64,000 bases of DNA from a candidate division WOR-3 bacterium (GTDB lineage Bacteria > Hydrothermota > Hydrothermia > LBFQ01). Positions 4,070-56,160 of the stretch are shown one piece after another (the first letter of the stretch is position 1; each line of letters starts with the position of its first letter). The translations under genes were made by a program, and so were the position numbers. The stretch covers positions 192,001-256,000 of the forward strand of contig JBDRWW010000001.1 of the NCBI GenBank assembly GCA_039802605.1, in the 5' to 3' direction. The notes under the pieces were generated by a model. It saw only the letters and a list, made by a program, of their open reading frames with translations. It was not told the DNA's origin and ran no database searches.

Positions 4070-4853
4070 CGAACTCGTTAAAGAGGGGGAGTACATAATA
4101 CTTTTTGGAGGACCCGATGCAAACTTTATAACGGAGTACAGGCCGGGAAAGGCTATACATTCCCATAGGGGGATATTTTACCTCCCGGAAAACCTTAAAT
4201 GGGGTGATGCTTTGGTATCAAGTAAAGGGAGGGTTTTTTATGTTATAAGGCCTTCAAATGCGGATTTCATATTGCGTTTAAAGCGCAAAACGAATATATT
4301 TTATCCGAAGGATATGGGTTTGATTTTGCTATACACAAACTTTTCCCCACTATCAAAGGTTGTGGAGGTTGGAACGGGTAGTGGTGCCATGGCGGTTTTA
4401 ATCAGCAGACTTTTAACCCCTCCGGGTAAGTTGTTTTCATACGACAATAACCCAAAGCATCAGAGGATTGCGAAGGAGAATATTGAAATGTTTGGAAAAC
4501 CCGAAAATGTCGTTTTTAGGCTTAGGGATGTCTATGAATGCGGTTTTTTGGAAAGGGATGTTGATATTGTTATAATTGATGTTCCGGAACCTTGGAGGGT
4601 TGTTCCACATGCTTACAAATCCTTAAAGGGTGGGGGATTTTTGGTTTTTGCATCCCCAAACATAGAGCAGGTTAAGGAAACCCGTAAAGTTATGGCGGAA
4701 ATGGGTTTTACGGCTATGAGAACCGTAGAGGTTCTTATGAGGGATTGGCAAATAAGGGATGTGGGTTGTAGGCCGGAACACGAGATGAGGGGGCATACCC
4801 TATTTTACTCCTTTGGTAGGAAAACCCTTAGAAGTTCAAAAGATACCACATAA
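4062..4853 (+). CDS. trmI: tRNA (adenine-58-N1)-methyltransferase
   Basis: IFYPKD, EVGTGSG, DVPEPW and SPNIEQV motifs of the GCD14/TrmI family. Confidence 0.9.
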   Translation: MPSELVKEGEYIILFGGPDANFITEYRPGKAIHSHRGIFYLPENLKWGDALVSSKGRVFYVIRPSNADFILRLKRKTNIFYPKDMGLILLYTNFSPLSKVVEVGTGSGAMAVLISRLLTPPGKLFSYDNNPKHQRIAKENIEMFGKPENVVFRLRDVYECGFLERDVDIVIIDVPEPWRVVPHAYKSLKGGGFLVFASPNIEQVKETRKVMAEMGFTAMRTVEVLMRDWQIRDVGCRPEHEMRGHTLFYSFGRKTLRSSKDTT

Positions 4854-5556
4854 CTTCGTCTTTTTTCCAAGGTGGCGTCGGCTTTTCCCCACCCCATACC
4901 GTAGTGTCTCCCACAATTAAAACCTTTTCCTTACAATCACCGAGGGCATAAACCTTAAAAGACCTATTTTTTTCAAAACCGTTTATTGGGCATATTTGAA
5001 AGGCCAAGAAACCATCACCGTATAAATCCGACAAATCCAAACTAACGGATTGTCCTTTAACCAACTTTAAAAGGTCCCTCTGTTCCATCATCGTAAAGGC
5101 ATAAACCCTAAAAATGTATTCTTCTGCCCTTCCCATCCACTTTATGTCCACTTCACCCCAATCCGGGAGGAAATCCCCCAAAGGTTCCAATATTTTGTTG
5201 CATTCGGGAAATGTTAAAAGGAACCTGTTCTTTGATATTAAAACCTCAACCGTGTCGCCGGTTTTAAACTTGGATGTATAAACGCTTATAGGTGTTGAAT
5301 CCATAACGAGGTTCTGGGTGTAATTTGTTCCGTATGTCCCCAAAAACACCCTACTGTGGTATTCAAATGTCCTTTCCTCACCCTTTGAAATGACGGAAAC
5401 CCTTATCTTTTTGCCTATGGTATCCGGTTGAAAGGCGCACAATCCGTTCCCATCCCTTGAAAGTACAACAACCATATTTCCGGGAAATACTTCTTCCCTT
5501 TTAAAAAGGGTAGCACACGATAGAACAAATGCGCTAAACGGAAGAATATACCGCAT
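4828..5556 (-). CDS. Hypothetical lipoprotein
   Basis: Lipobox-like VLSC at residue 14; 242-aa ORF following thiE. Confidence 0.65.
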   Translation of the reverse strand: MRYILPFSAFVLSCATLFKREEVFPGNMVVVLSRDGNGLCAFQPDTIGKKIRVSVISKGEERTFEYHSRVFLGTYGTNYTQNLVMDSTPISVYTSKFKTGDTVEVLISKNRFLLTFPECNKILEPLGDFLPDWGEVDIKWMGRAEEYIFRVYAFTMMEQRDLLKLVKGQSVSLDLSDLYGDGFLAFQICPINGFEKNRSFKVYALGDCKEKVLIVGDTTVWGGEKPTPPWKKDEVMWYLLNF

Positions 5557-16646: not shown

Positions 16647-16648
16647 GT

Positions 16649-17858: not shown

Positions 17859-17901
17859 CACCGGAAATTATAAGGGGTTAAGGGTTTTTAAATGCCAATG
17901 C

Positions 17902-18582: not shown

Positions 18583-18907
18583 TGAGGTTTATTATATCGG
18601 CTTTTGTGGGTGGGGGTTTGGGATTCTTGGCGGGAATCATAGGGATAGGAGGGGGAATATTTTTAAGCCCGGTATTGATATTTTTCGGATTTGATCCCAA
18701 AACTACCTTATAAACTCCGCAAGCGGGCTCATAGCCCGTTTGGGTTTCGTGGATATAGATTGGAAATTTACGGTTTTAAGCGTTATATCCGTATTCATAG
18801 GGGGTTTTGCCGGCTCATATCTCGGATCTTATAGGTTTCAAAGTAATACGCTTAGAACTCTCCTCGGTTTGGTTCTTGTAGTTGCCGGTATTAAACTCCT
18901 ACTCTAA
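18583..18907 (+). pseudogene. TauE/SafE (TSUP) transporter C-terminal remnant
   Basis: GFLAGIIGIGGGIFLSPVL, then after a frame break INSASGL...GSYLG...LVVAGIKLLL*. Confidence 0.75.
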
Positions 18908-20491
18908 TACCAAAACCCTTTTAACCCCGTTAGAACCTTTATAGAAATAAATCCCCTTATTTTCCGGTTTTGAAACCCTCCTACCATCAACCGTATACAG
19001 AAAACCGTTTTCCTTTATTATAAATCTCTCTTTCTCCATAACGATTGTGGAAGGTTCTTTAAAGCCTATATTTGCTATCCAAGTAGTCCATAAAGAATCC
19101 GTTCCCGCCTTCGGCAATTCCGCTATAACCCATAATGAGGAATCAACGGGATCAGGAGAACCCCCAAAATAATCCCCCCACCTGTTTCTACCGGAACCGT
19201 GGTCGTTAAAGTACCAACTTAAACCCGCTTTATACACATTGTAAGGGGAAAATAGTGTATCATAACTCACCCTTGCTATGTATGTGGCGGATGGATAGTT
19301 CGTACCGGATATGCCAACCCTCGTGAAGCTTATGGCAACACCCTTAGGCGATACGCTCACAGCCGGGTATATCCAACTTATCCCGTTCTCGTATAACCTC
19401 CTATCCTCCAAAACCACACCCGTTGTATCAACCACGACAAACCTAACGGATACCAACGAGGAATTAAGGGGGTGCGCTTCGTTAAATGCGTAGTAAATCT
19501 TTCCGTTTAGATAATAAACCTGAAAGGTTGCGAGTACAACTTCAAGGTTCGGATAACCCCCTCCCTGGGGGGCATCAGGAGGGGTGGAATATGGGGAGAT
19601 CGACAGGGTTATGCATGGTGAGAGTTGGGGCGATGAAACAGGCCCGTAGATTTTATACATCCTGTTAAACCTTATCAGATAAACGGCATCGGAATAATCA
19701 TAAGTACTCCTTGAAACCCTCGGCCAAGAGGGCATACAACCCAACTCCGAATCAACAAAATCCTCCCAAGATGATAGGGTACCATTATATGCGTCGGCTT
19801 TATTTAAAACCCTAACCTTTGGGTAATACGCATAGGATGAAAAACCTATCTGTTGTGAGGATATTACTATCCACTTATCGTTAAAACCCAATTCCGGATA
19901 ATCCGCCCAGTTGTTTGTTAAGGTGTTATCATCGTATTTGGCGTTTAGTCGGTAAAAGTACCATCCCCCTAAGGGGTTATCCCCCTCCGAAACGGCCAAC
20001 AGGTAATGGGATTCCCTGCTTGAAGAGTTGTAATACAAGGCCAAAACTATCCACCTTCCGGAAATTATGTCGTAAGCTATCTTAGGGTCAAAGGGCAAAC
20101 CCCCGGAGGGTATTACGGATGAAAAAAACCCGCGAAGAGTATTGATATATTCCGTAATCCCGGTAAATTTGTTTATAAATGCGATACTCGTATTAACCAC
20201 CACACCCACATGTGTGCTACAAGCGGCGAGTTGTGGATCCGGTGGTATCCAACCCGTATAGAAAATGCCTTCAAAATCCCTTATAAGGGTATCGGATGGG
20301 TAGGGGAGAAAGTCGGGATAAGGCCCCGTTTTATTTCCAAGGGGAACTTCTGCGGATTTTTCCCAAACATTTACATTCCTAAATTCCATAACCTCCTCCG
20401 GTGTTATCGGTATGTACTCCTTTGGGGGATTTGGCATATACGCCGTTTTTATTAAAACCGTATCAATTGCCAATATAAATAATCCCATCAT
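18899..20491 (-). CDS. Secreted hypothetical protein with T9SS-like C-terminal domain
   Basis: PPDPQLAA, DYP and RWGDY motifs; C-terminus LYTVDGRRV...KGIYFYK...KRVLVL. Confidence 0.75.
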   Translation of the reverse strand: MMGLFILAIDTVLIKTAYMPNPPKEYIPITPEEVMEFRNVNVWEKSAEVPLGNKTGPYPDFLPYPSDTLIRDFEGIFYTGWIPPDPQLAACSTHVGVVVNTSIAFINKFTGITEYINTLRGFFSSVIPSGGLPFDPKIAYDIISGRWIVLALYYNSSSRESHYLLAVSEGDNPLGGWYFYRLNAKYDDNTLTNNWADYPELGFNDKWIVISSQQIGFSSYAYYPKVRVLNKADAYNGTLSSWEDFVDSELGCMPSWPRVSRSTYDYSDAVYLIRFNRMYKIYGPVSSPQLSPCITLSISPYSTPPDAPQGGGYPNLEVVLATFQVYYLNGKIYYAFNEAHPLNSSLVSVRFVVVDTTGVVLEDRRLYENGISWIYPAVSVSPKGVAISFTRVGISGTNYPSATYIARVSYDTLFSPYNVYKAGLSWYFNDHGSGRNRWGDYFGGSPDPVDSSLWVIAELPKAGTDSLWTTWIANIGFKEPSTIVMEKERFIIKENGFLYTVDGRRVSKPENKGIYFYKGSNGVKRVLVLE

Positions 20492-22649: not shown

Positions 22650-24305
22650 ATGAAAAGGTGTATATTTGTTTTACCGCTGTTGGCAGGCCCCTTAGGGGCA
22701 CAACTCTTCTACGCGTATCCCCAGACGGTATTCGGTCTCAGAGGGGTGTATTCCTTCCGCTTCATGCACACGGCTTTCCTGTTTGAGGACGACTTGGATA
22801 GGCTGTTCTACCCCGTTAAACTCTCGGAAATAGAGGGTGGTAGGTTCTTCTCCGCGTTGTCCAACCCCTTCGGGAACGAAAGGGCGCTTGACCCCACGGC
22901 CCCTACAAACAACCAGTTAATCTTAGGAGCAAAGACAAATGTTTTCCTAAACCTTTCTCCTTTGTATATGCAAACGGATCTAAACTTTGGAGTTTCTTCC
23001 AAATTGGACACGGTTTATTATCAAAATTGGAGTAATCCGGATAACAAGTACGCGGATAGGATAGAATTAAAGGATACCGTGTTCCAAGGTAGAGGATACG
23101 GCGAAAAGGGTTTCCTATTATCCCTAGGAAATCAAACCTTTGGCTTCCTGTTCCTCTATTCAAGCATGAATATTAAGGTTTATCCACAAAGAACGGGGGT
23201 TTTCCCATTCTCTTATGGAAATTACGCGTATGTGCGTAAAGAATACGATAACATAAACAACACCTTACAATCCTCAGATTCCGCGGTATCTTACAGAACC
23301 GTTGATACAAGTATAACACCCGTTTTGTTTGGGGTATCGCTTGGTTTCGGAGGGTTTTCCGGAATGGTTTTTGGCGGTTTTATGGGCGCAGGCGATAGGG
23401 ATACGGCAAATAGGTATGCGGAGAGAAACACAAATCCGGCAAGTCCGTTTACCGGTCAGAAATGGAATGGTGTTTTAACCGCTAACGGTAGAGCCTCAGG
23501 GCCCATATTCGGATTGCAGGGGGATTTGGCCTTCGGTTCCGAAACCTGGAAGTCCAACCTGATGTTTGCCTATGCCCTTAGATACCTTTCAAACGGAAAA
23601 GGTAAATCAAACGAGGTGAACTGGTGGGGAATATATAACGCCACTCAATACCCCACTTTTAGCACACTCGATTCTACTATCGGCGAGTACAAATATTCTT
23701 CAAATACACACGATATAACCATATATCTGAGGAATAAATATCCGGTTCACGAGCAGGTTTTGTTCGGTGCCGGATTGGCCTTAGAAATGGTGTTTGGGGG
23801 AATGAGTAGGGATTACACAAATGTTTTAAACAAAAGGATAACCTTTAACGATACCGATGGGGACGGTCTCGTTGATGCCCCCGGAGATGTTAGAACAACC
23901 AATTATACCAAATATTCTTATAAGGAGAATGTATCAACCACATCTTTTAACTACCACATACCCGTTGGCTTTGAAGTTGTACCCATAGCGAGTTGGGAGG
24001 ATGTTAAGTTAAGGCTTGGGGCACTGTATTCCCATACATCAACTACAACGACTACAAAAACCTATAATTGGAGCGTGGAGAGTAAAACTAAAACCGAAAC
24101 ATCGGGGGGAACAACGGAAACCCCAAACGATATAACCGTACCTGGTGAGAACATATCCAAGACAAAAACCTCCATATCAAACACCGCTTTCTATTACGGC
24201 GCATCCGTGGCGATAGCAAAGAGGGTTGTTATAGACTTTACCGGCTTTGGAAACGGGATATTAACACCGGCTTTTTGGAACATATCCGTTGTACTAAGGT
24301 ATTAA
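22650..24305 (+). CDS. Hypothetical outer-membrane beta-barrel protein
   Basis: Signal peptide, amphipathic beta-strands and aromatic C-terminus (WNISVVLRY). Confidence 0.65.
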   Translation: MKRCIFVLPLLAGPLGAQLFYAYPQTVFGLRGVYSFRFMHTAFLFEDDLDRLFYPVKLSEIEGGRFFSALSNPFGNERALDPTAPTNNQLILGAKTNVFLNLSPLYMQTDLNFGVSSKLDTVYYQNWSNPDNKYADRIELKDTVFQGRGYGEKGFLLSLGNQTFGFLFLYSSMNIKVYPQRTGVFPFSYGNYAYVRKEYDNINNTLQSSDSAVSYRTVDTSITPVLFGVSLGFGGFSGMVFGGFMGAGDRDTANRYAERNTNPASPFTGQKWNGVLTANGRASGPIFGLQGDLAFGSETWKSNLMFAYALRYLSNGKGKSNEVNWWGIYNATQYPTFSTLDSTIGEYKYSSNTHDITIYLRNKYPVHEQVLFGAGLALEMVFGGMSRDYTNVLNKRITFNDTDGDGLVDAPGDVRTTNYTKYSYKENVSTTSFNYHIPVGFEVVPIASWEDVKLRLGALYSHTSTTTTTKTYNWSVESKTKTETSGGTTETPNDITVPGENISKTKTSISNTAFYYGASVAIAKRVVIDFTGFGNGILTPAFWNISVVLRY

Positions 24306-28767: not shown

Positions 28768-31176
28768 CTATCTAATTACCCCAAACCATTTTTCAACCTT
28801 CTTATTATTTACGACTACCCTTAGAACATAAATATCCGGGGGCAAATCCGGCAAGGGGATTTCAACGGTATTTAACTTTTGGGTGGTAATCTCTTTGCCT
28901 AGAACCCTTGCCGCCCTTATGTTAAACACCTCTATTTTTACCTTAACATTTCCACCAGTTCCGTCATCGCCTATGAATATTTTAATTTTCCCGCTACCCT
29001 TAACGGGGTTGGGTATTACAAGAACATTCTTTGGATCCAGTAATGGGGGTTTGTTTAAAACTTTAAAGTTTGTTGAAGCCTTGGAAGAGGTTGTATAATC
29101 GTTATATGCCTCTACGGATACGGAATGTACTCCTGGACTCAGGTTGTCGGTTTTAACATAAACATAATCATAAGGAGATCCATCCAAATAAAACATACCT
29201 CCCCTTATCACGAATGCGGACGAGACTTGTGCTAGAACCAATACGCTATCCCCTATATAAGCGCTATCGGGTATAGTCCTTATAAAATCTATAAAAGCAT
29301 TTTCTCTCTTTTGTGTGATAAAGTAAAATGAATCCCTTCCGGCCCAATTTCCGACTACATCCTTTAAAGAATCAACTATAACCCAAACGGTGTCGCCGTA
29401 CGGTAGGGGATTTTTGGGGGATATCGTGATAATCTTTTGGGAGACCCAATTCTTGTTATATCCCGTAGAATCCAAAACGGTAGTATTGTACCTTATCCTT
29501 ATGGAATTTGGGTAAAATTCAACCGTATTCATGGGCTCGTTAAAGGTAATTTGAATATATGTAGCCGTTGAAACACCGGTTTGACCGTTTGCCGGATATG
29601 TATAAACTATATAAGGGCCCACGGTATCGTATATTTGCAGATAAAAGGAATCCCTTGAAGTGTTTCCGTAGAAGTCCGACGCATAAGCAAACATTTTATA
29701 AGTACCCTGTGGTAAATTTTCGGAGCTTATATGCACACATATGGTATCGGGGTTGGAGTAAGAACTTGAACCGTCGCAAGGCCTCAATGTAGCCCTTCTG
29801 TTATTGGCGCTATCCGTTATCCAAGCATCCAAAATGCCCGGTATAGCGGGGAAATCTCGAACGAAAACCCTTAAGGTATCGGTATAGGGTTGGTATATAA
29901 CAAGGGTATCAACATCCGTTGTATCGGAATCTATTAGGACCTTTACAATTGGCGGGGTTATATCCCCCAATGAGGAATAATATATTGCCGAATCCGGGTT
30001 TGATATTCCTACACCCCAAAGGTTTTTAATAAAAGTACCCACTTTTATTTTCACGGTATCACCGGCGTTGTAAGCGGTAATAAACATGTTTCTGTGCAAT
30101 GGGTTAAAGGTATCGGGAACTATTTTGAATCTTAAATTTCTGGGTAGGTTATTCACCCAAAACATAGTATCCCTGATACTTCTGGGGTCTATGGGTTGGT
30201 TAAAAATAACCACAATGCCCGCATTTGGAGGAACATCTGAACCGCTTGGGGGATTGAAGGATATTATAGAAGGTGGAGATCCGGGAGGTGGAACATAAAC
30301 ATCTTTGTATTTAAGCCCAACTTCGGAGGTATCTATGATGAATGTGCTATCCCCTGATAAGTCATAAACATAAAACCTATAAGCCGTTTTTATATCCCTG
30401 CTTTTAATTCCGAAGTTTCGAATAACCACCCACCTTACACTATCAATCCCGTCTATACTATCAATCCGTATGTTATAAGCCGTATCAACCCATCCGGTTG
30501 TTAGTTTTAATCTAAAAGCAATAGGGGTTAAAGTAGTCATTGTATCAGCCCTTATATCCAATACCCGTGAGTTTGTTTGTATAAATTTAATTGAATCGTT
30601 TCGCCCATCGTCATCAATGTCATCATTAAACATAACATAATTCATAATAGGCTTGTATATGCAGGTATCCAAAACGGGCCAACTATCGCTTGATGATAAA
30701 CCCTCCTTTACAAACCTCACACCATCAAAGGAATAAGGAACATTCTCTAATAAATCAACAATTCCATATACCATAGATGTATCAAGGATAACACCACGCA
30801 AGTGATTTGCCAAGGTATCCGGGCTTAGGGTATCTCCGATTATGGTGCTATCAACGAATTTCCATCGTAGGATATAACCAAATTTGTAGGTTTCCGGTAT
30901 CAAATAATTACACACCCCAAATGAAGATATAGTCGTAGAATACACCGAATACACACTATCCTTTATATAACCGGAACCCATTTTTCTACCGCTTATTCTA
31001 TAAACCCAATAATTTCCCGTTCCAACGCCTATGTATCCCAAGTCCCCCGAGCCCATTGGAGAGCCCGAAGGCCGTTTTATGGTTTTTATGCCCATATATT
31101 CGTGTTTAAGGTGGTCAAATATACTATCCAATTTTGCCAGATTTCCCAATATCCAAAAGGGTAAAAGCATATTCAT
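28768..31176 (-). CDS. Large secreted Ig-like (Big_5-type) repeat protein with T9SS type-A-like C-terminal domain
   Basis: PPSIISFNP...FNQPID and PYIVYTYPANG...FNEPM Ig-like repeats; CTD IPNPV...VFNI...DIYVLRV. Confidence 0.75.
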   Translation of the reverse strand: MNMLLPFWILGNLAKLDSIFDHLKHEYMGIKTIKRPSGSPMGSGDLGYIGVGTGNYWVYRISGRKMGSGYIKDSVYSVYSTTISSFGVCNYLIPETYKFGYILRWKFVDSTIIGDTLSPDTLANHLRGVILDTSMVYGIVDLLENVPYSFDGVRFVKEGLSSSDSWPVLDTCIYKPIMNYVMFNDDIDDDGRNDSIKFIQTNSRVLDIRADTMTTLTPIAFRLKLTTGWVDTAYNIRIDSIDGIDSVRWVVIRNFGIKSRDIKTAYRFYVYDLSGDSTFIIDTSEVGLKYKDVYVPPPGSPPSIISFNPPSGSDVPPNAGIVVIFNQPIDPRSIRDTMFWVNNLPRNLRFKIVPDTFNPLHRNMFITAYNAGDTVKIKVGTFIKNLWGVGISNPDSAIYYSSLGDITPPIVKVLIDSDTTDVDTLVIYQPYTDTLRVFVRDFPAIPGILDAWITDSANNRRATLRPCDGSSSYSNPDTICVHISSENLPQGTYKMFAYASDFYGNTSRDSFYLQIYDTVGPYIVYTYPANGQTGVSTATYIQITFNEPMNTVEFYPNSIRIRYNTTVLDSTGYNKNWVSQKIITISPKNPLPYGDTVWVIVDSLKDVVGNWAGRDSFYFITQKRENAFIDFIRTIPDSAYIGDSVLVLAQVSSAFVIRGGMFYLDGSPYDYVYVKTDNLSPGVHSVSVEAYNDYTTSSKASTNFKVLNKPPLLDPKNVLVIPNPVKGSGKIKIFIGDDGTGGNVKVKIEVFNIRAARVLGKEITTQKLNTVEIPLPDLPPDIYVLRVVVNNKKVEKWFGVIR

Positions 31177-35584: not shown

Positions 35585-35594
35585 ACTCTACCCC

Positions 35595-36062: not shown

Positions 36063-36073
36063 ATTCTACCCCC

Positions 36074-40973: not shown

Positions 40974-40981
40974 ATCAAGTG

Positions 40982-44671: not shown

Positions 44672-47600
44672 ATGAACGCCGAAAGGGTAAAATGGATAAT
44701 CTTTATTTTGGTGTTCCTTTTCGTATCCTTTGTATATTTTAAGACAACCGCTCCGACCACTGCATTTTGGGATGTGGGTGAATTCCTAGCAGCGGCGCAT
44801 ATCCTCGGAGTCCCACACCCGCCCGGCACGCCGTTTTATGTGATCTTGGCAAAGTTTTTTGACCTATTACCGATTCCTGCGGCGGAACTATACTCTTTGA
44901 TAAACGGGGGAATAAAGGCAAACCCAGCCGTTTTAAAAATGACACTTATACCCATACTCATGGGCGGTTTAAACGCCGCTTTGGTATACCTCTTGGCCTA
45001 TGAGGTTTTAAAGATTGTGGATAAAGAAAGTGCCTTTCCCGATTGGGTTTTACATGTTTTTGCAGCCGCGGGGGCATTAACCATGGCCTTTGCTAGGATA
45101 GTATGGTTTGATTCCATAGAGGTGGAAACATATGCCCCCGGCGCATTTTTTGGAATATTGGCCCTGTATTTTGGCCTTTTATGGTATAAAAACAAGGACG
45201 ACAACAACTCTTTGAAATGGTTAATACTAGGGGTTTATTCAATAATGTTGGGTACGGGCATTCACCTAACGGTTCTTTTTGCCCTACCCCCTTTATTCTT
45301 TTTGGTTTGGGTTGCAAAACCAAAGCTCTTGTGGGATAGAATAGCCATAGGTCTTTTTGGAGCCATGTTTTCCTTATTCTTTCTGATGTTTTTAACTTAT
45401 GAACAAAACGGCCCGGTTTTGTTGTTTGGGATTTCATATCTGTTGATGTTTTGGTATATGGTGTTGGATAAAAAACTCTCAAAACTAACCGATCCTCTGA
45501 CTTTATTGTTTTTACTCGGAGCATTTCTTGCCGGTTTTGGAATCGTTCAGAAAAACTCCCAGTTTTTAACATTGGGTACATTTTTATCCGTTGCTTCAAT
45601 GTTTGTAGCGGGAAGGATGTGGGAGGATTGGAAGGGTTGGGTGTTTATGGTGATTTTGGTGGGGTTTTCAATAGAGTTTTGGATAATCGCGAGGGCTTAT
45701 TACCTCCACATGCATCCCCTTGATGCCAGGATAAACGAGGGGGATCCATATACTTGGCAAGCCTTTATGGATGTCCTTTTGAGAAAACAATACGAACCGG
45801 CAAATATATTACCCAGAAGGATAGAACTAATTGACCAGATAAAGGTTTTCTTAATGTGGTTTGGATGGCAGTTTAACGCATCAACATACAATGTTTTAGA
45901 CCCGCAGAAAATCGCAAATATGACCCTATTTGACCATATAGGGCCTTTTGGAATATTCGCCATAGCATTGGGGATTTTGGGCATGTGGGAACACTTTGTT
46001 AAAGACAACAAAGATAGGGGTACGTTTGTCCTCGTGGGTATTGCAACACTGCTGGCTGGTATAGGTTTCTTCATAGCATTTAACTTTAAAGATTCTCCAA
46101 CGCATCCCGTAAACCCCTTTAACGCCCAATTTGGAAATGTTGAGGTTAGAAACAGGGATTATTTCTACCATCCGTTTTACCAACTTTGGGGTTTGTATTT
46201 AGCAATCGGTATGTTTTACCTCGGGAAGATTTTAACGGATTACTTAAAAAACTACCTTTATGCGGCCTTGTCCCTTACGGTTTTGGGTGTATTTATGGTA
46301 TATCTTCAAATAACCCAACACGCAAAACTCAACATCAGAACCGCAAACTATATACCCGAAGATTTCGCGCATAACATTCTGGTTTCCGCAAAGTCGGATA
46401 AAGGGGTATTTATGACAAACGGGGATAACGATACATTTCCCGTATGGTTTGTACAAGAAGTATTAAAGAGGAAATGGGGCCTTATAAACGCAAACCTATC
46501 CCTGCTCAATACGAATTGGTACATAAGGGAATTGAAACACTGGGGTGCCCCCATAAGTTTTTCGGATGAGGACATATATAGGCTTCCCCCTATAATTGAA
46601 GGCGGCGGTGAAAGGGGCTTCCTATACCTAAGGGATTTGGCCATAAGGGATATGATAGCAACGGCCGTTGGATATAAAACGGATAATTATCGCGAGATAT
46701 TGGGTATGGATGGAAAACCCATAAGGGTACCCGCCATATACTTGGCGGATAACTTAACCTTTGCCAAGGAGGTTTTTGAGGGTAAGGAATTCTCAATGCC
46801 TATATACTTCTCCTTGACCTCAGACCCGGAAGTCTTTGCCGGTTGGGAACAATATATGGTACTTGAAGGAATGCTTTTAAGACTAACGGGGCAAAGGCAG
46901 CAAAAAACCATAGGTTTGGGCGCAGTAGATGCAGAATGGACGGATAAACTCATAACTGGGGGTTCGGATAACCCCGTTGAATATGTAAAGAAGGCATCTT
47001 TGAACTACTACGAGGAACCGAGGTTGGACAGGTGGTATTATAGAAGCCTATTTGACGATAGGGTTCCGAAGAACGAGGATCATCTAAGGCTTTTGAGGAA
47101 TTACGCATCCGCAACTTTAACGCTCGCCGCGCACTATACTTCCGAAGGGAATTACGACCGGGCGGAAAAGTTGTTTGACCTTGGAGAAATGTTTGTGAAA
47201 AAATCGGTTGAAGATCTTCAAAGGGATATTGAAAGCGATCCGCAAATTTTTGCAATAAGGTTGTCAAGGGCTTATATAAGTATGAGGTTGGGGAAATTCA
47301 AAGAGGCGGAAAGGGTTTTGAGGAAGTATTCTAAAAACCTTCCCGATGGCGAATATAAATGGAGATTGGCTTTAATAAAGCTGTACGAGGGGAAAACCGA
47401 TAGCGCCGCCGAACTCGCAAAGGTACTTATAACCTATGTACCCGAAGAAGACCCCGTTTGGGGAATATCCCTTGATACGCTTTACACCCTTCTGCCCGCG
47501 GACAGCTTGATAAACATATCTTATAAGGCATTTGAGGGGGGAAAACTCGACCTATCCCTAAAACTCCTTGAAAAATCCAATACCACGCAAGCGGTTAAAA

Positions 47601-47821
47601 ACTGGGCGGGTATGTTAATAAACGCCGTTAAATACCAAGATGAAAATATTTTCAAGTCTTTGGCCTCCTACGCGCCCTTTGATACAACGAAGGCCGGGGC
47701 TTGGAAATCCGAATTGGATAGGTTATACGGTTCTTTGAGTAAGTATTTCTCACGGCTTGGGGATACGACAACGGCAAATAGGTTTGAAGAATACAGAAAA
47801 ATTTACGCCGAACAGAAATGA
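44672..47821 (+). CDS. DUF2723 / TMEM260-like GT-C membrane protein with C-terminal TPR-like region
   Basis: FWDVGEF...LGVPHPPGTPFY, EVETY, RNRDYFY and TNGDNDTFP motifs. Confidence 0.85.
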   Translation: MNAERVKWIIFILVFLFVSFVYFKTTAPTTAFWDVGEFLAAAHILGVPHPPGTPFYVILAKFFDLLPIPAAELYSLINGGIKANPAVLKMTLIPILMGGLNAALVYLLAYEVLKIVDKESAFPDWVLHVFAAAGALTMAFARIVWFDSIEVETYAPGAFFGILALYFGLLWYKNKDDNNSLKWLILGVYSIMLGTGIHLTVLFALPPLFFLVWVAKPKLLWDRIAIGLFGAMFSLFFLMFLTYEQNGPVLLFGISYLLMFWYMVLDKKLSKLTDPLTLLFLLGAFLAGFGIVQKNSQFLTLGTFLSVASMFVAGRMWEDWKGWVFMVILVGFSIEFWIIARAYYLHMHPLDARINEGDPYTWQAFMDVLLRKQYEPANILPRRIELIDQIKVFLMWFGWQFNASTYNVLDPQKIANMTLFDHIGPFGIFAIALGILGMWEHFVKDNKDRGTFVLVGIATLLAGIGFFIAFNFKDSPTHPVNPFNAQFGNVEVRNRDYFYHPFYQLWGLYLAIGMFYLGKILTDYLKNYLYAALSLTVLGVFMVYLQITQHAKLNIRTANYIPEDFAHNILVSAKSDKGVFMTNGDNDTFPVWFVQEVLKRKWGLINANLSLLNTNWYIRELKHWGAPISFSDEDIYRLPPIIEGGGERGFLYLRDLAIRDMIATAVGYKTDNYREILGMDGKPIRVPAIYLADNLTFAKEVFEGKEFSMPIYFSLTSDPEVFAGWEQYMVLEGMLLRLTGQRQQKTIGLGAVDAEWTDKLITGGSDNPVEYVKKASLNYYEEPRLDRWYYRSLFDDRVPKNEDHLRLLRNYASATLTLAAHYTSEGNYDRAEKLFDLGEMFVKKSVEDLQRDIESDPQIFAIRLSRAYISMRLGKFKEAERVLRKYSKNLPDGEYKWRLALIKLYEGKTDSAAELAKVLITYVPEEDPVWGISLDTLYTLLPADSLINISYKAFEGGKLDLSLKLLEKSNTTQAVKNWAGMLINAVKYQDENIFKSLASYAPFDTTKAGAWKSELDRLYGSLSKYFSRLGDTTTANRFEEYRKIYAEQK

Positions 47822-49053
47822 TACCCCTTGACCCCAGAAACATATTTTGTTTTGGGTTTTGTTTTTGGGTACCGGATTCTTCGCAGTTTTCACTAAACCT
47901 TTACAGTAGGAATAATCCTTATGCCGGTTTTGTTGAATTCACCCCGCAAATATCTTTAAAAATTGGGAATTTCGGGGTTTTGGTTGGGATGAGCGCCTTC
48001 AACGGTAGGTCAAAGCTCATAAATAAGGAGGATTGGAACCCTTATAGGGAGTATTCCCTTGAAATAGTTGATTGGAAGGGGGAACCCGTTATAACAAAAT
48101 ATCCATTATTTGAGGCCTTGCAATACAGGGCTTTTGGGTGGCTTGACTACGGTTTCATAAAAGTTAAAATGGGGAGGGATTATTTAAAGGTTAGCCACTC
48201 CTTAAGGTATCCCCTTTTGTTTTCCGGATGGGGCTATCCCTTGGACTGGTTTTATTTGGTGGAAGGGGGATATAGGGGTTTAAGGGGATATGCGGGTTTT
48301 GCGAGGGTTCCATCAAATTTTTATGAAAACAAGAGGTTGGCCTTTCAAAGGCTTGAATGGGAATTCTGGAAGGTGAAACTAGGTATAACGGAAATGGTGG
48401 TTTATACGAGGGATGATACCTGGAAATACGCAAACCCATTCGTGCTGTATTATGTGGTTCAGAGGAGGGAATCGGATAACGATGACAACCTATTTTTACA
48501 CCTTGATGCGACCATTGATTTGGGCCTTATGGAATTTTATGGGGAATTTATGGGGGATGACCCCTCGGTCTTTCATGGGGAAGGGCAGGCACCCCTTATG
48601 GGTTTTACGGGTGGGTTTAGAATTGATGGGAATTACGGGTTTTTCAACATGGAAGGTTCGGCGGTTTTACCTTTCACATACGCCCATTTCACATATAAAA
48701 ACACATTTGACGCTTTGGGATTACCCTTGGCGACATATCTAGGGCAGGATTACACATCCCTCTACTCAATCTATTCTTTTAAGGGGTTTTTTGCGGACTT
48801 TGAATACATATTGCACGGCAATACACCCTTTGGATTACCCTTCGAGGAATCCGGCTTACCACCTACGGGTGAATTCCCAAGAAAACCCAGAAGTGAGTGG
48901 TTTAGGTTTGGATTGGGTATTCGCGATGTGAATTTTGATTTATCAATAGCATATTTCGGATTATCGGGAAGGCTGGGATTTGATGTAATAAACGGAAAGT
49001 TTTACCCGGCGTGGTCTTTTGTTTGGTTTTCTTCTCTTAAATGGGGAATATGA
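47818..49053 (+). CDS. Capsule assembly Wzi-like outer-membrane protein
   Basis: GRD, RLE, E.VVY, NPF, DN and YGEFMGDD pattern. Confidence 0.6.
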   Translation: MIPLDPRNIFCFGFCFWVPDSSQFSLNLYSRNNPYAGFVEFTPQISLKIGNFGVLVGMSAFNGRSKLINKEDWNPYREYSLEIVDWKGEPVITKYPLFEALQYRAFGWLDYGFIKVKMGRDYLKVSHSLRYPLLFSGWGYPLDWFYLVEGGYRGLRGYAGFARVPSNFYENKRLAFQRLEWEFWKVKLGITEMVVYTRDDTWKYANPFVLYYVVQRRESDNDDNLFLHLDATIDLGLMEFYGEFMGDDPSVFHGEGQAPLMGFTGGFRIDGNYGFFNMEGSAVLPFTYAHFTYKNTFDALGLPLATYLGQDYTSLYSIYSFKGFFADFEYILHGNTPFGLPFEESGLPPTGEFPRKPRSEWFRFGLGIRDVNFDLSIAYFGLSGRLGFDVINGKFYPAWSFVWFSSLKWGI

Positions 49054-50078
49054 GGTTTGACGATTCAAGGGTTAGAAAGGCTTTTTACCCTTTTAGTAAG
49101 TTGAAGGGGGTGGAGGATTTAAGGGTTGGGATTTTTACATTTGGTGAAAGGATAAAGGGGGTTTTGGGGGATGTTGATTATGTTCTCTCCCCCAACTTTG
49201 TGCCCTTTGAAGGATTAAAGGGTAATCCGCCGGTTATATTGGTGAAAGGCGAAGTGGTGGGGTATAGGATGGGACGGGTAAGGGGTTGGGAAGATGCATA
49301 TAATCTGGCCCATAAAGGCCTTGGCGGGGAATTAAATGGAATATATTTCGGACACTTTTGGGAGATCCCTTTAAAAATTGAAAGCGTTTTGGAGTTTGAT
49401 CTAAAACTTCTCAAACTTGAAGATTTCTATAAATTGGGCGAACTGTACATTCATAAAAGTTCAAGGGTTTCCTTAAAAGGAGACTTTAACGCTTGGGGGG
49501 TTGTGGATATGGGTGCGGTTATAAAGCCCTTTGTGGTTTTGGAGGGTGGGGTTTATATAGGGGAAAACAGCCTTGTAAAGCCTTTTACATATGTTTCATC
49601 TTCCGTTATAGGCCCGGTTTGTAAGGTTGCGGGCGAAATATCGCACACCGTTTTTGAGGGCTTTTCAAACAAGCAGCACGGAGGTTTTATAGGACATTCC
49701 TATGTTGGGAGTTGGGTTAATATAGGTGCGGGAACAGAGGTTAGCAATTTAAAAAACACATACGGTACGGTAAAGGTTTATTCTTATGAAAAGGAAGGAT
49801 TGGTTGATACGGGAGAGATGTTTTTGGGTTTGTTTGCGGGGGACCACTCAAAAATAGGGATAAACACCACAATTTCAACCGGGACGGTTTTGGGTATATT
49901 TGCAAACATAACGGCAAACGATTCCCCAACGGAGAAATTTATACCGGACTTCTATTGGACGGGTGGGGGGAAGATGGAATTAAATAAAGCCGTTGAGATC
50001 GCAAAAAGGGTTATGAACAGGAGGGGAATAAGCCCAAGCGAAGACTACATAAATAGAATAAAGGAGTGTTATGAATAA
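49050..50078 (+). CDS. Putative sugar-nucleotidyltransferase / GlmU-like left-handed beta-helix protein
   Basis: LRVGIFT, NKQHGGFIGHSYVGSWVNIGAGT and SNLKNTYG motifs. Confidence 0.8.
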   Translation: MRFDDSRVRKAFYPFSKLKGVEDLRVGIFTFGERIKGVLGDVDYVLSPNFVPFEGLKGNPPVILVKGEVVGYRMGRVRGWEDAYNLAHKGLGGELNGIYFGHFWEIPLKIESVLEFDLKLLKLEDFYKLGELYIHKSSRVSLKGDFNAWGVVDMGAVIKPFVVLEGGVYIGENSLVKPFTYVSSSVIGPVCKVAGEISHTVFEGFSNKQHGGFIGHSYVGSWVNIGAGTEVSNLKNTYGTVKVYSYEKEGLVDTGEMFLGLFAGDHSKIGINTTISTGTVLGIFANITANDSPTEKFIPDFYWTGGGKMELNKAVEIAKRVMNRRGISPSEDYINRIKECYE

Positions 50079-51234
50079 ACCCGTATGCGTTATGAAGTTT
50101 GGGGGGTCATCCGTTGCAAATGTGGAAAGGATTTTAAATGTTGCGAGGATAATTAGGGATAAGACCGAACAATATATGCCCATAGTTGTGGTATCAGCAA
50201 TGGGGAAAACTACGGATAATTTAATAGAAATGGCCTATACGGTTAATGAAAACCCCCCTCCGAGGGAATTGGATATGCTTCTAACCGCCGGGGAAAGGAT
50301 ATCTATGGCCTTACTTTCTATGGCACTACACAAATTTGGTTTAAAAGCAAGGTCTTTTACGGGTTCTCAGGTGGGTATAATAACGGAAAACAGGTTTAAC
50401 AGGGCAAGGGTTCTGGAAGTTAAACTTTTAAGGGTTAAGGAGAGTTTGGAAGAGGGCGTAATACCAGTTATAGCGGGTTTTCAGGGTGTTAGTACGAACA
50501 AGGAGATAACGACTTTGGGAAGGGGTGGGTCGGATTTAACGGCCGTGGCCTTGGCCATATCCCTCGGAAACGTTAAGTGTGAGATATATACGGATGTTGA
50601 TGGGGTTTATTCCCTTGATCCTAGGAAATATCCAAATGCAAAGAGGTACGATAAAATTTCATTTGAAATCCTTGCCGAAATGTCATCCGCTGGGGCAAAG
50701 GTTATGCACAGCAGGGCCGTAAGTTTGGCCGCAAAGTACAATCTACCCTTCTTTATAATGTCAAGTTTTAACCCTAAGAAAGGGGGAACTATGGTTGATA
50801 AGTTTTTAGAGGGACCCAATGTAAAGGGGATAACCACAAAGGATGTGGTGATTTTTGATGTTGAGGGTTTTGAAGATGGCTATATACTACAAAGGGTTTT
50901 AAAGGATGTGGATATTTTAAACTTATCGCAAGATTCATCGGGTAGGCATTTGGTGTTTCTGTTGGATATAGGCGAAAGGGATAAAATGTTAAGGATATTA
51001 TCGGAAGAAAGGGTGAAATTTGTTATGAGGGAAAACTTACAAATGATAAGCATTATAGGATGGGGAATAGGAAGTTCGTATGAAATTTTGGAAGGTATAT
51101 TTGATAGTATAAAAGGAGAACATGTTTTTTCCCTGAATATTACCGAAATGCGGGTTTCGGTAGTTGTGGAAAAGGATAAAGGGGAAAAGGTGGTGGAAAA
51201 CTTGGCGGAAAGGTTTAACCTATTGGAGAAATGA
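50071..51234 (+). CDS. lysC: Aspartate kinase
   Basis: KFGGSSV, VVSAMG, TTLGRGGSD and TDVDGV motifs. Confidence 0.93.
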   Translation: MNKPVCVMKFGGSSVANVERILNVARIIRDKTEQYMPIVVVSAMGKTTDNLIEMAYTVNENPPPRELDMLLTAGERISMALLSMALHKFGLKARSFTGSQVGIITENRFNRARVLEVKLLRVKESLEEGVIPVIAGFQGVSTNKEITTLGRGGSDLTAVALAISLGNVKCEIYTDVDGVYSLDPRKYPNAKRYDKISFEILAEMSSAGAKVMHSRAVSLAAKYNLPFFIMSSFNPKKGGTMVDKFLEGPNVKGITTKDVVIFDVEGFEDGYILQRVLKDVDILNLSQDSSGRHLVFLLDIGERDKMLRILSEERVKFVMRENLQMISIIGWGIGSSYEILEGIFDSIKGEHVFSLNITEMRVSVVVEKDKGEKVVENLAERFNLLEK

Positions 51235-52454
51235 GGTTATTACCTTATATAGCGGCGGTTGTTCTGGGTGTGTCCTTTGTTGCTCTTAAAGTTTATAAGG
51301 AAACAAAGATGGGGAGAAGCGTTTATGCACCCCTTTCGGACCTGAAAACCCTGTTAAACACGCCAATTGTGGGAACAATCGAAGACTCGTATTCTTACCT
51401 ATTATCTGCATATGGGTATTACAAGAACTTTGTGCCTGTAATAGATTGGGAAAGGGATAGGTATTTCGTATCTTTCAGGTTCTTATCTTCCATAGTATTC
51501 GTTCCTTTTATGTGGATATTTAAGGGTTATTTCCCAATAGCGTATATATTATTCTTTTCGTTGGCGGTTATGCTCTCTTATGCCCATCTATTACAAACCC
51601 TAAAAATACACCCGATAATATCAACCATAACTTTGGTTGCATTATCCCCTTTAACATTTTACCACATACCCCGTTTGATGTTGGAACCCCCAGCGGTTTT
51701 ATTTCTAATCTGGTTTTTGATATCATTTTTAAAGCGTAGGTATATCTTATCCTTTGTTTTCCTGTTTATCGCGGGAATAATTAGGGCCGAGATTTCGGTT
51801 TTGTGTCTTATTTTTGGAATTTACGCTTTTGCGAAAACACGCAAGTTGTCCTTTTCGCTTTCGGTAATACCGGTCATTTTACAAGTTTCCATTAATTATT
51901 TCCTCGGGGATCAGAGCAACTTTTATTTTTGGACCTATAGGGGATATTTGGAAAACTTTAAGTATAATGAGTATTCATCGGATAATGTGAAGGCATGCAT
52001 TAATAAAAAACTGGGATTTGTTCCGGAAAAGCCGATGATATATACACACCCGTATTTAAGGGTTTCAACCGAATGTTGGAAAGAAGTTGTGTCATCCGAA
52101 ATGGATTTTAAGAAGGGTTTCGGTTATGCTTTTAAACAAATATTAAAAAACGCCTTTGATGTTGTATTTTTCCCGGTAAGTAAGTTTTCATCGTTCTTTA
52201 AATGGCCTATTTTATCCTTTTACCTTTTTTATGGTATATTGGTGTTTATTTCTGTTTTTGGATTTTGGTTTTGGGGTTCAAGACTTCTTATCGTATTCTA
52301 CGCCATCCTTATAACCATTTACTCGCTTTACAATCCCTTCGGATTGTTTGATTCTTCGAGGTTCAAACAGATGCTTATACCCTTTGAGGTGGTATTCATC
52401 TCCTCATTACTATCAATACATCGTTTTCAAGTTTTAAAACCTCGTCAATTTTAA
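51231..52454 (+). CDS. Multi-pass membrane protein, possibly GT-C-fold glycosyltransferase
   Basis: Many TM helices; DS..Y in the first loop, MLE and IRAE motifs, and a late RF motif typical of GT-C-like proteins. Confidence 0.5.
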   Translation: MRLLPYIAAVVLGVSFVALKVYKETKMGRSVYAPLSDLKTLLNTPIVGTIEDSYSYLLSAYGYYKNFVPVIDWERDRYFVSFRFLSSIVFVPFMWIFKGYFPIAYILFFSLAVMLSYAHLLQTLKIHPIISTITLVALSPLTFYHIPRLMLEPPAVLFLIWFLISFLKRRYILSFVFLFIAGIIRAEISVLCLIFGIYAFAKTRKLSFSLSVIPVILQVSINYFLGDQSNFYFWTYRGYLENFKYNEYSSDNVKACINKKLGFVPEKPMIYTHPYLRVSTECWKEVVSSEMDFKKGFGYAFKQILKNAFDVVFFPVSKFSSFFKWPILSFYLFYGILVFISVFGFWFWGSRLLIVFYAILITIYSLYNPFGLFDSSRFKQMLIPFEVVFISSLLSIHRFQVLKPRQF

Positions 52455-53992: not shown

Positions 53993-55237
53993 TTATAAAG
54001 CGGGTTGTTTTGTAAGGTTTAAAACCCTTCTCCTCCAAAAGGCGGATTTTCTTGCGGAATTTTTTATCCTCTTCTTTTCAAGTAGAGGTCTCGTAGCATC
54101 CGTGGATTCGGGATGCCTCCTGTAATAGTATAAAACCTTATGTATCCTTCCAATCCTATAAAGTTCGCTTATCTTTAAAACCACATCGTAATCTTCGGCA
54201 AAATTCGGAAAATTAACCTCATCAAATCCCCCAATCCTTTCCAGAACTTCCCTCTTATAACTCCTAACGGCCCCGGCACCCTCTACCCTTAAAATGTTGT
54301 TTATAGAAAACTCCAAATGCTTAACCGTTCCCATTTCCCCTATCGGATTACCCTTTTCATCAACCACTTGGTAATATGATACGGCCAATCCAACAGGGTA
54401 TTCCTTATGGTATTCGTAAACGGTTCTTAAAGCATCCTTTGAGTAAAAATCGTCGGAATCCAACTGCGAAATTATCCAACCCTTTGAATTTTTTATACCC
54501 ATGTTTAAGCAACCCGCCAAACTCTCCCCATAAACCTCAACTAACTTTATTCTACCATCCCCTTGTGAAAACCTCTTAACGATTTCCCTCGTATTATCCG
54601 TTGAGCCGTTATCCACAACTATGCACTCCCAGTGTGGGAAATCGTTTTCTAAAATCGATTCCAAGGCCTTACCTATGAACCTTTCCCTATTCCTTACTGG
54701 GATTATAACGGATATATAGGGCTTATGCGGCTTTTCTTTTAAAGGCAGGTCAAGGGGTTTGTTTAAATATGCCCCAATTTTAACGAGGAAATCCTTAAAG
54801 ATCCCCTCCAAGGCAATCTCGTCCTCTTGGGAATATGTTAGGTATTTAAAAGCCTCGGAGTAAAGTTTCCCAAACCCCTCAACGCTAAACCTTTCAGATA
54901 GAACCCTATCGAGGACCAAATGGTTTTTACCTATAATATATAGTTGCAACCTCGCGTAATATTCCCAGAATTTTCCGTATTTCCAAGCCTTTATACCCTC
55001 CAAAAAATCCCAATGGTACAACCTCAAAGGTCCCAACTCCGCCCTTTCGGTAAAATCCTGAAAATCCCCAACATCAAAAACCTTACCCTTATAAATGTAT
55101 TTACCAACAACTATTGGATGTTTTGGGATATCCTTTAAGTTTTCGTATATTACGGCGGCGTTATCCTCCAAAACCGCCAGCACATCCCCAACCCTATTGG
55201 GTAAAGGCTCCCCAGATTTTAAAAACTGTACTTTCAT
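53993..55237 (-). CDS. Glycosyltransferase family 2
   Basis: SVIIPV, VVDNGSTD, LDSDD and EDYD motifs. Confidence 0.88.
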   Translation of the reverse strand: MKVQFLKSGEPLPNRVGDVLAVLEDNAAVIYENLKDIPKHPIVVGKYIYKGKVFDVGDFQDFTERAELGPLRLYHWDFLEGIKAWKYGKFWEYYARLQLYIIGKNHLVLDRVLSERFSVEGFGKLYSEAFKYLTYSQEDEIALEGIFKDFLVKIGAYLNKPLDLPLKEKPHKPYISVIIPVRNRERFIGKALESILENDFPHWECIVVDNGSTDNTREIVKRFSQGDGRIKLVEVYGESLAGCLNMGIKNSKGWIISQLDSDDFYSKDALRTVYEYHKEYPVGLAVSYYQVVDEKGNPIGEMGTVKHLEFSINNILRVEGAGAVRSYKREVLERIGGFDEVNFPNFAEDYDVVLKISELYRIGRIHKVLYYYRRHPESTDATRPLLEKKRIKNSARKSAFWRRRVLNLTKQPAL

Positions 55238-56160
55238 CCACCCCCAAGGGATTGGACATATTTGTTTCTCAAATCCGTAGCAACCGTCCTTATTGCATTT
55301 GAAAGGTTTGAACCCACCTGTAGGTTTTCCACCCTCTGACTTAGAGGGTTGCCATTAACCTCAACGGGTTTTCCGGTTTTTACATCATAAATGGTTATTG
55401 TAAAACTAACTATGTTGTTTTTTGAAGAAACCGAACCGAAGACGAATATGTCGGAACCCACGGTTTGCGCTATGCTTAAAACATCCCTTTCGTTTATCGT
55501 CCTTTTCGTTAATCCCTTTGAATTTATATACATCTTTGCCGCATTTTTATCATAAACCCTAAACCTCGTGCTCTCGTTAAAAACATCGTATATGTAATCC
55601 ATCAATGTATCGCCTAAGCCATAGGATGCCGCCTGATCATCCTCTTCCCTAAAAGGAAAAACGATAACCTTCTTTTGCAAAAACTCAACTCCCCTATAAG
55701 CCTTGTTTAATTCGTCAAGGACCAAAGGGGTTATATCATGCCTTGAATCGTACCAAACAGCATTTGATACATCAAGGACAACCTCATAACCCATACCCTT
55801 TGCTATCCTCTCGGTTGTTTCCCTAACTTTCTGGATATAAGGGGTCATTACCTCTTTGCTTTTGGCCTCAACCTGCTTGATTATAAAGTTTGAAATACTA
55901 TCAAGTTGCCTTTTGTATCCTTCTATTTCCCGTTGTCTTAAAATCCTCTCCGCATCCGTTAATATAGGCCACTGCTTTTCCAATGCGGATTGTAGGGAAT
56001 CCAACTTTCTCTTTACGGAATCCCTTTTAACTTCAAGGGTTGCCTTATACCTTATAACCTGCTCCCTCGCATCCTTTAAATCTATGTATTCGTTGTAAAT
56101 CTTTTCCATATTCACAAGGGCCACCTTGGAGGATTGGGACAAAATCATCAAAAGAACCAT
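55234..56160 (-). CDS. OmpH/Skp chaperone fused to a CsgG/TolB-N-like domain (start approximate)
   Basis: KVALVNMEKI...GYEVVLD...DIT..VL (Skp), followed by VIVFPF...VGSDIFVFGSV...IYDVKTG. Confidence 0.7.
   Translation of the reverse strand: MVLLMILSQSSKVALVNMEKIYNEYIDLKDAREQVIRYKATLEVKRDSVKRKLDSLQSALEKQWPILTDAERILRQREIEGYKRQLDSISNFIIKQVEAKSKEVMTPYIQKVRETTERIAKGMGYEVVLDVSNAVWYDSRHDITPLVLDELNKAYRGVEFLQKKVIVFPFREEDDQAASYGLGDTLMDYIYDVFNESTRFRVYDKNAAKMYINSKGLTKRTINERDVLSIAQTVGSDIFVFGSVSSKNNIVSFTITIYDVKTGKPVEVNGNPLSQRVENLQVGSNLSNAIRTVATDLRNKYVQSLGGG

Follow-up and report, generated by a model that had tools for sequence, protein, structure and literature searches.

What is a bacterium outside the Bacteroidota doing with a protein that carries 25 copies of D-[ST]-[AILVMT], the tripeptide at which members of that phylum attach O-linked sugars to exported proteins? 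The Ig-like protein in question, of 802 amino acids (aa) and with a short hydrophobic leader, is encoded at 28768..31176 on the minus strand of a 64,000-nucleotide stretch of DNA (the window) from a candidate division WOR-3 bacterium (contig JBDRWW010000001.1, positions 192,001 to 256,000). General O-glycosylation is known in Bacteroides fragilis, Tannerella forsythia, Porphyromonas gingivalis, Prevotella intermedia and Flavobacterium johnsoniae, and in major gut and oral bacteria roughly half of all non-cytoplasmic proteins are modified by the Bacteroidota system (PMC12871550). A preliminary description of the window proposed that its host, apparently not a member of the Bacteroidota, loads exported proteins with this sequon and runs a related general O-glycosylation system. 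The motif excess is genuine and lies far beyond chance, and the motif statistics support a related system in a host of another phylum, with the attached sugar inferred from them.

The 802-aa protein has the highest motif count among the 1633 called genes of the genome and ranks fourth in motif density among proteins of at least 200 aa; 10,000 shuffles of its residues gave a mean of 3.9 motifs (standard deviation 1.9, maximum 11) against the 25 observed. Pfam places a Big_5 domain at residues 517-620 and, below its threshold, a type IX secretion system (T9SS)-type tail at approximately 721-796. The Big_5 linker was ruled out as the origin of the high count because the domain start holds only 1 of the 25 motifs, and the sorting tail was ruled out at 8 motifs observed and 8.0 expected. 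The two homologues returned, P0122 and P0123, carry 27 and 22 motifs; homologues occur in 4 of 41 genomes of the class, all within the protein's own family, and a 52%-identical homologue has 16 of the 25 motifs in common with it. After residue 670 the window protein also lacks, in frame, 16 residues that are present in both P0122 and P0123.

A motif excess is also found across the predicted exported proteins of the genome. The 1633 genes were called with a hexamer model, the 1578 products of at least 80 aa were kept, and localisation classes were assigned by heuristics together with a profile of the tail derived from this genome, rather than by SignalP; enrichment is given as motifs observed over those in within-protein shuffles, with the first 20 residues taken off. 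On this measure lipoproteins (n = 50) reach 4.83 (160 observed, 33 expected), tail-bearing proteins (n = 77) 2.68 (414/155), signal-peptide proteins (n = 141) 2.56 (214/84) and short-leader proteins (n = 83) 2.15 (141/66), while multi-pass (n = 166), single-pass (n = 94) and ambiguous (n = 20) proteins score 1.33, 1.29 and 3.40. The residual 'cytoplasmic' bin (n = 946), which is contaminated by exported proteins including the 802-aa protein and other short-leader proteins, stands at 1.16 (574/494), and still at 1.22 under a stricter hydrophobicity filter. A cleaner cytoplasmic set, defined by homologues among the soluble proteins of non-FCB control genomes (90 of 91 proteins used, one lipoprotein dropped), gives 56/59.8, or 0.94, and 26 window proteins defined as cytoplasmic by Pfam hold 9 motifs against 11.1 expected. 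The exported-versus-cytoplasmic count with a shuffled control that the preliminary description had suggested therefore separates exported classes, at 2.15-4.83, from conserved cytoplasmic proteins, at 0.94. Its statement that exported proteins are loaded with the sequon holds as a class-wide excess and fails as a universal rule, since loading is uneven: 47 of the 77 tail-bearing proteins have at least twice the expected number of motifs, and 15 of the 77 (for example, 40979-42478 and 9173-10213) have none, where uniform enrichment predicts 3.4.

Is the signal specific to the sequon, or does it reflect a structural habit of exported proteins? Position specificity, computed on 351 exported proteins, is sharp at the first residue, where Asp scores 2.8 and every other residue 0.6-1.3 (Glu 0.8, Asn 0.8), and at the second, where Thr scores 3.5, Ser 2.3 and all others at most 1.2. 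At the third position Leu (4.3), Thr (2.5), Val (2.5), Ile (2.4), Ala (2.3), Cys (2.1), Phe (1.7) and Ser (1.6) are enriched, and none of Tyr (0.6), Trp (0.5), Gly (0.8) or the charged residues (0.4-0.7) exceeds chance. For comparison, at this position measurements in Bacteroidota give the order L, I, V, T, A, S, M (PMC12871550), and the P. intermedia sequon is reported to exclude R, H, K, W and Y (PMC10897501). As a statistical preference, the motif in common with the Bacteroidota can be written D-[ST]-(L, I, V, T, A, S; C and F rarer), and here as there it is confined to non-cytoplasmic proteins and outward loops. A DNA-level cause was ruled out, as the motif residues are encoded by all synonymous codons.

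An explanation without any modification, in which exported proteins favour the motif for structural reasons (a beta-turn leading into a strand, a helix N-cap, a calcium-binding Asp or heat stability), draws on three observations: D-[ST] followed by a hydrophobic residue (h) shows a mild preference in the residual cytoplasmic bin too (0.49 vs 0.37), several motifs of DUF2723 membrane proteins sit at helix starts in a structure model, and the Ser codons of motifs are skewed to AGY (55% vs 29%), as if derived from Gly or Asn turn residues. Against this explanation, the look-alike motifs E/N/G/K-[ST]-h, [ST]-D-h and h-[ST]-D remain near 1, and the strand-formers Tyr and Trp are not enriched at the third position. 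When exported proteins are divided into thirds from beta-like to helix-like, enrichment is 2.79, 3.44 and 2.55, and the corresponding thirds of control exported proteins, including a beta-like third of only 0.88, give 0.88, 1.17 and 0.61. Across 85 DUF2723 proteins the motif is enriched 4.22-fold in the helical TPR part, whereas [ST]-D-h in the same region scores 0.88, and the effect tracks lineage across a GC range of 31 to 49%. Heat adaptation alone was rejected as a cause, two thermophile plasmid controls giving 0.4-1.1 in small sets.

The placement and turnover of the sites bear on the same question. By a crude topology rule that assigned 102 of 166 multi-pass proteins, predicted outward loops of this genome contain 37 motifs where 21 are expected (1.80) and inward loops 17 where 19 are expected (0.91); in other WOR-3 genomes, with 55 of 96 proteins assigned, the values are 20/12 outward and 11/15 inward. 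In 77 pairs of exported orthologues with 33% identity, both partners hold 31 of the 112 motifs, conservation of the motif Asp (0.40) is below that of other Asp residues (0.47), and unshared motifs number 3.8-4.5 per 1000, approximately three times the 1.4-1.6 found in 206 cytoplasmic pairs. Sites that are positionally unfixed between orthologues, together with the excess in helical TPR domains and outward loops, indicate that a beta-turn bias is not the explanation, so the proposed interpretation survives correction for composition and beta-turn preference, and a purely structural origin of the motif is improbable. The same turnover bears on the idea that the motifs are a relic of a glycosylating ancestor and are now unused. 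The 16 motifs common to the 802-aa protein and its 52%-identical homologue are as a relic would leave them, but at 33% identity most motifs are lineage-specific although both sides are rich in them, a state that calls for ongoing gain, and the DUF2723 gene retains an intact frame whose active-site residues are invariant; a relic is thus very hard to credit. From these motif patterns we consider it quite likely that D-[ST]-hydrophobic is read as a glycosylation signal in the periplasm.

The range of the signal extends beyond the window's genome. The nearest genus-named relatives of the window's DUF2723 protein, at 76-77% identity, belong to Ca. Caldipriscus, and further homologues carry the labels WOR-3, Hydrothermales, Zixibacteria, Ignavibacteria, Eisenbacteria and Bacteroidetes. 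WOR-3 is placed near the FCB group. Ca. Caldipriscus falls within WOR-3, for which there is one cultured strain, sy37 (PMC12285271, PMC12542636), and this kinship agrees with the earlier placement of the host outside the Bacteroidota. In 200-kb samples from five other WOR-3 families (G006, G030, G039, G107 and G149), exported proteins score 2.15-3.03, or 1.99-2.79 under a second signal rule, and cytoplasmic proteins 0.89-1.30. The trait is therefore likely to be phylum-wide in the sampled WOR-3 (six families) rather than peculiar to one thermophile, although these samples are kin and not independent, and the range result counts as a single lineage-level observation. A Gemmatirosa plasmid scored 1.17-1.27 and a Rhodothermus plasmid 1.79, with control motifs of the latter at 1.0-1.5.

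Prevotella nigrescens (400 kb) and Parabacteroides distasonis (200 kb) served as positive controls, and their classes behave differently from one another. In P. nigrescens the 12 proteins with a T9SS tail are depleted of motifs (8/30, or 0.26) and tail-less signal proteins are enriched (70/43, or 1.61); in Parabacteroides lipoproteins score 1.64 and other signal proteins 0.77. Selection against glycosylation of surface cargo has been described for P. gingivalis, and heavily glycosylated cargo for T. forsythia (PMC8729774, PMC8550257), TfsB carrying 19 sites and TfsA 11 (PMC8729774). The depletion in Prevotella cargo agrees with the P. gingivalis case. Unlike both Prevotella (0.26) and P. gingivalis, the tail-bearing cargo of the window's genome is loaded rather than depleted, and WOR-3 looks like the T. 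forsythia case.

Several observations weigh against a glycosylation system of the Bacteroidota type. Met at the third position scores only 1.2 in this genome, and Ala only 1.0 in the other five WOR-3 samples. The six non-FCB controls (Escherichia coli, Fusobacterium, Paenibacillus, Shinella, and Deferribacter and Thermomicrobium plasmids) score 0.38-1.32, but these sets are small, at 11-46 exported proteins each, and both thermophile ones are plasmids. The Bacteroidia controls are flat when pooled (0.99 and 0.90 for P. nigrescens, 1.11 and 0.76 for Parabacteroides) and show no sidedness (17/18 in outward loops), so the statistic is uncalibrated by known glycosylators. At the genomic level, metG is not followed by the wzx and glycosyltransferase genes of an LFG locus, and the best match in the genome to an O-glycosylation flippase model reaches 85 bits against a cut-off of 720. 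Finally, all of the evidence is statistical, and no glycan was observed. Downstream of metG lie genes for a 10-transmembrane-segment protein, a small protein and V-ATPase-like proteins, and wzx-like genes occur on other contigs; the LFG locus (metG, wzx, glycosyltransferases), which serves the outer glycan, is reported not to be universal within the Bacteroidota (PMC12871550).

The missing LFG gene layout at metG is among the points that favour a different chemistry, in which the motif receives a phospho-form (phosphoglycerol or phosphoethanolamine) or an unrelated glycan added by a convergent enzyme. The statistics demonstrate selection on an extracytoplasmic Ser/Thr motif and not its chemistry, and the Bacteroidota core glycan is mannose-rhamnose(-glucuronic acid), whose rhamnose is unassured here, with rmlB below its cut-off (279.8 vs 365.1 bits). 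Agreement of the motif with the Bacteroidota sequon at all three positions, and a GT-C family shared with the Bacteroidota that is nearly universal in the phylum, make such a modification a poor prospect. A Bacteroidota-type O-glycosylation system throughout WOR-3, as the motif data suggest, remains the probable explanation, its phylum-wide extent being slightly less secure than the periplasmic reading of the motif itself.

How new is this? Enrichment of the motif in predicted non-cytoplasmic proteins has already been published for Fibrobacterota (PMC12871550, a 2025 review, Fig. 2A and text), a result that also lies outside the Bacteroidota and uses the same statistic as here, motif frequency over chance. 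WOR-3 was not found named in the review text covered here, and its GTDB-genus figure may plot WOR-3. The finding is likely a phylum-level extension of a known system, enrichment outside the Bacteroidota already being in print. The WOR-3 signature is like that system in pairing the motif with a conserved DUF2723 protein and with T9SS-type cargo as predicted substrates, and unlike it in belonging to another phylum, in showing a larger excess than the two Bacteroidia samples, in having no metG-wzx locus and in the many substrates of this genome with ultra-short leaders.

Which enzyme might read the motif? The transferase of the Bacteroidota system is described as unidentified (PMC12871550; preprint 10.64898/2026.07.27.740950), and the review text names no enzyme but suggests looking for homologues of eukaryotic O-mannosylation (PMC12871550). 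The window encodes a candidate at 44672..47821 (plus strand), a 1049-aa TMEM260-like GT-C membrane protein whose match to PF11028 (DUF2723) scores 100 bits against a cut-off of 24.2 and which itself carries 6 motifs, 5 of them in the TPR part. PF11028 is present in 150 of 151 genomes of the phylum, including all 122 good ones, and the 14 control genomes yield a single match, in Bacteroides thetaiotaomicron. The family profile matches human TMEM260 (9rql) with an E value of 7e-33, and Asp34 of the DUF2723 protein, invariant in 85 sequences, aligns with catalytic Asp52 of the human enzyme, which is inactivated by D52A (PMC10214176). The predicted structure (pLDDT 92.8) comprises a GT-C module, an outward (periplasmic) alpha/beta domain and a TPR tail, and its top fold matches are PglB (Z 21.8, root-mean-square deviation 4.1 over 400 aligned residues), Pmt1-Pmt2 (21.4) and Pmt4 (20.7), then OST-B, AglB and ArnT. 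TMEM260 is not among the matches listed in these fold searches, whose structure libraries may not include it. A fold shared with protein glycosyltransferases is no demonstration of function.

The likeness to human TMEM260 (CAZy GT117; PDB 9rql/9rqm/9rqn) consists of PF11028, the GT-C module, a catalytic Asp located on the first outward loop, sequence similarity that reaches into the luminal domain, and Ser/Thr acceptors on Ig-like domains. The bacterial protein differs in being approximately 300 aa longer and in that it would serve hundreds of clients, where TMEM260 has few. Shorter DUF2723 forms may occur in phyla that lack the motif. The same motifs are preserved in the DUF2723 proteins of Prevotella and Parabacteroides, and a sequon falls within the last 40 residues of 44 among 85 members of the family. 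For P. gingivalis and P. intermedia, supplementary data of published work record DUF2723 proteins as measured glycoproteins, which places that region in the periplasm but is no proof that DUF2723 is the enzyme. Among the open-access papers listed in literature searches, none tied DUF2723 or TMEM260 to glycosylation in Bacteroidota or mentioned the motif for WOR-3.

The genes around the candidate form a run on the plus strand. The DUF2723 stop is overlapped by a gene for a 411-aa predicted outer-membrane barrel of Wzi/RemB-like fold without a motif (47818..49053), followed by a GlmU-like sugar-nucleotide enzyme (49041..50078, TIGR03991 above cut-off); the last gene of the run encodes a 407-aa multi-pass protein (51231..52454) that has no Pfam or NCBIfam match and is a PMT_2/ArnT-like GT-C candidate on its features and predicted structure. 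A conserved glycosylation operon round DUF2723 was ruled out, because the run is kept only in loci L011-L013 and DUF2723 has other neighbours in L014-L016. In a Ca. Caldipriscus record (L013:10916-13357) extra matching frames lie behind the PMT_2-like gene, as if it had been duplicated. In other WOR-3 classes (L001-L010, loci that extend only 1.5 kb each side of the DUF2723 match) DUF2723 adjoins folP and a conserved gene, G000:C4:103243-103998 in the window's genome (G000), at 8 of 10 loci.

The same glycosylation could be initiated by another enzyme, either a YfhO-like GT-C protein or the PMT_2-like protein at 51231-52454, with DUF2723 carrying out a later transfer or an unrelated role such as outer-glycan ligase or lipid or lipopolysaccharide modification. 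YfhO (PF09586) is a multi-pass GT-C-like family, represented by weak matches, that is found in most WOR-3 genomes searched and also in Bacillus and Lactococcus. It was predicted to be the Bacteroidota OTase in a 2026 preprint (10.64898/2026.07.27.740950) and is present in 139 of 151 genomes of the phylum. The P. gingivalis glycoproteins include a 'putative YfhO/PMT family glycosyltransferase' (PMC8729774), which weakens the absence of YfhO from that species reported in the preprint, and this absence was accordingly dropped as an argument for DUF2723. Two features speak for DUF2723 instead: among the 14 controls YfhO also matches B. subtilis and L. lactis, where DUF2723 matches only B. thetaiotaomicron, and G149 (one contig, 97% complete) combines an enrichment of 2.0-2.15 and a DUF2723 protein with no Pfam match to YfhO. 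A YfhO query from G000 found only a weak match in G149 (E 7e-4, a 304-aa frame), and the same query brought up matches in 3 of the 5 genomes negative by Pfam, so many YfhO absences are a matter of sensitivity.

Three points count against DUF2723 in particular: the motif recognised by human TMEM260 on IPT domains is Px6Px3Px2GGx3T, which lacks an Asp at -1 (preprint 10.64898/2026.09.21.753134); YfhO-like proteins are also present in the genome, as two genes; and the DUF2723 gene run, including the linkage to the barrel, is limited to the closest relatives (L011-L013). On sequence and structure-model grounds DUF2723 nevertheless stands as the leading candidate for the transferase of this system; given glycosylation at D-[ST]-hydrophobic, the chance that it is the enzyme is put somewhat short of even, initiation by a different enzyme is possible but less favoured, and by its model the 51231-52454 protein would be a minor rival candidate. 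The initiating enzyme has been missing for over 15 years. The WOR-3 signature widens the comparison able to separate candidates and directs attention to a family that has a human disease enzyme among its relatives. Also on offer are a small genome in which GT-C genes are few, an enzyme that is probably heat-stable and could serve structural work, and sy37 as a relative in culture (PMC12285271).

If DUF2723 or another GT-C enzyme acts at the motif, a sugar, probably mannose first, would be loaded on polyprenyl phosphate and then flipped, and the enzyme would recognise D-[ST]-hydrophobic on periplasmic proteins. Tail-bearing cargo such as the 802-aa protein could then be exported via SprA/PorV to form a densely glycosylated coat, modelled on T. 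forsythia rather than P. gingivalis, and the glycans may stabilise envelope proteins. Donor supply is plausible from the gene content: Gmd and PGI/PMI, genes for GDP-mannose use, score above their cut-offs, and two GT2 proteins of 237 aa, though below all cut-offs, are similar to polyprenyl-phosphate sugar synthases. A more ambitious and rather doubtful proposal is that D-[ST]-hydrophobic O-glycosylation is ancestral to multiple phyla and denser in WOR-3 than in gut and oral Bacteroidia, with a glycoprotein coat built from T9SS-like cargo, and that its initiator DUF2723 is the bacterial counterpart of TMEM260, moving a single mannose from polyprenyl phosphate with no pre-built core.

The export route of the 802-aa protein bears on where its motifs would be displayed. 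Its T9SS-type tail scores 24.8 bits in Pfam, under the cut-off of 27, with no TIGR04183 match listed, and a paralogue passes TIGR04183 (35 vs a cut-off of 23); the genome-built tail profile matches the tail alone (E 4e-5) but missed the protein in the genome scan. It has no classical Sec signal peptide, and a short uncharged hydrophobic start follows a clear Shine-Dalgarno site. The suggestion that it is a very heavily glycosylated surface protein is thus borne out as to motif load, and its surface location depends on the weak tail and the short leader; from its sequence it is probably a densely glycosylated surface cargo protein. SprA and two PorV proteins score above cut-off in the genome (G000:C4:4452-9941, C2:177748-178803 and C7:61669-62658), and a PorU-like protein (G000:C5:48936-52349) is under it (319.6 vs 420).

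SprA, the two PorV proteins, the PorU-like protein and at least 77 tail-bearing proteins constitute a T9SS-like system in a WOR-3 genome, and a literature search found no paper on type IX secretion in WOR-3. In place of a signal peptide, 49 of the 77 tail-bearing proteins begin with an uncharged hydrophobic leader of 5-9 residues, and short-leader starts often lie a few codons past an in-frame stop (for example, 18899-20491, 28768-31176 and 58886-61381); tail-bearing proteins of other WOR-3 classes have mostly ordinary signals. Many starts, such as 18899-20491(-) and 40979-42478(+), are preceded at approximately 8-12 bases by a TATAAT/TAAAAT/TAGAAT-like box and no Shine-Dalgarno sequence (a pattern seen by eye and uncounted), as mRNAs with little or no leader would be expected to show.

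The motif counts that the preliminary description gave for window proteins are all exact on translated open reading frames. Besides the 25 of the 802-aa protein, there are 8 in a 243-aa lipoprotein (56148..56879, minus strand), 7 in an 831-aa probable envelope protein without a Pfam or NCBIfam match (58886..61381, plus strand), 5 in a 551-aa signal-peptide protein (22650..24305, plus strand), 5 in a 530-aa protein with a T9SS-type tail and short leader (18899..20491, minus strand), 4 in a Skp/OmpH-domain protein described as a Skp fusion (55234..56187, minus strand), 4 in a 242-aa probable lipoprotein (4828..5556, minus strand), and none in Acs or E1.

Elsewhere in the window, rpsL-rpsG (35237-36448) are followed by genes for a 115-aa protein of unknown function, a methyltransferase, lepB and a transpeptidase-domain protein, fusA not being next in the run. 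The region at 16317-16978 and 16962-17861 encodes a tandem pair of HIT proteins, 109 aa each, and a protein in which the PTPS domain occurs twice, in addition to which a separate single-domain PTPS protein is encoded at 44171-44515.

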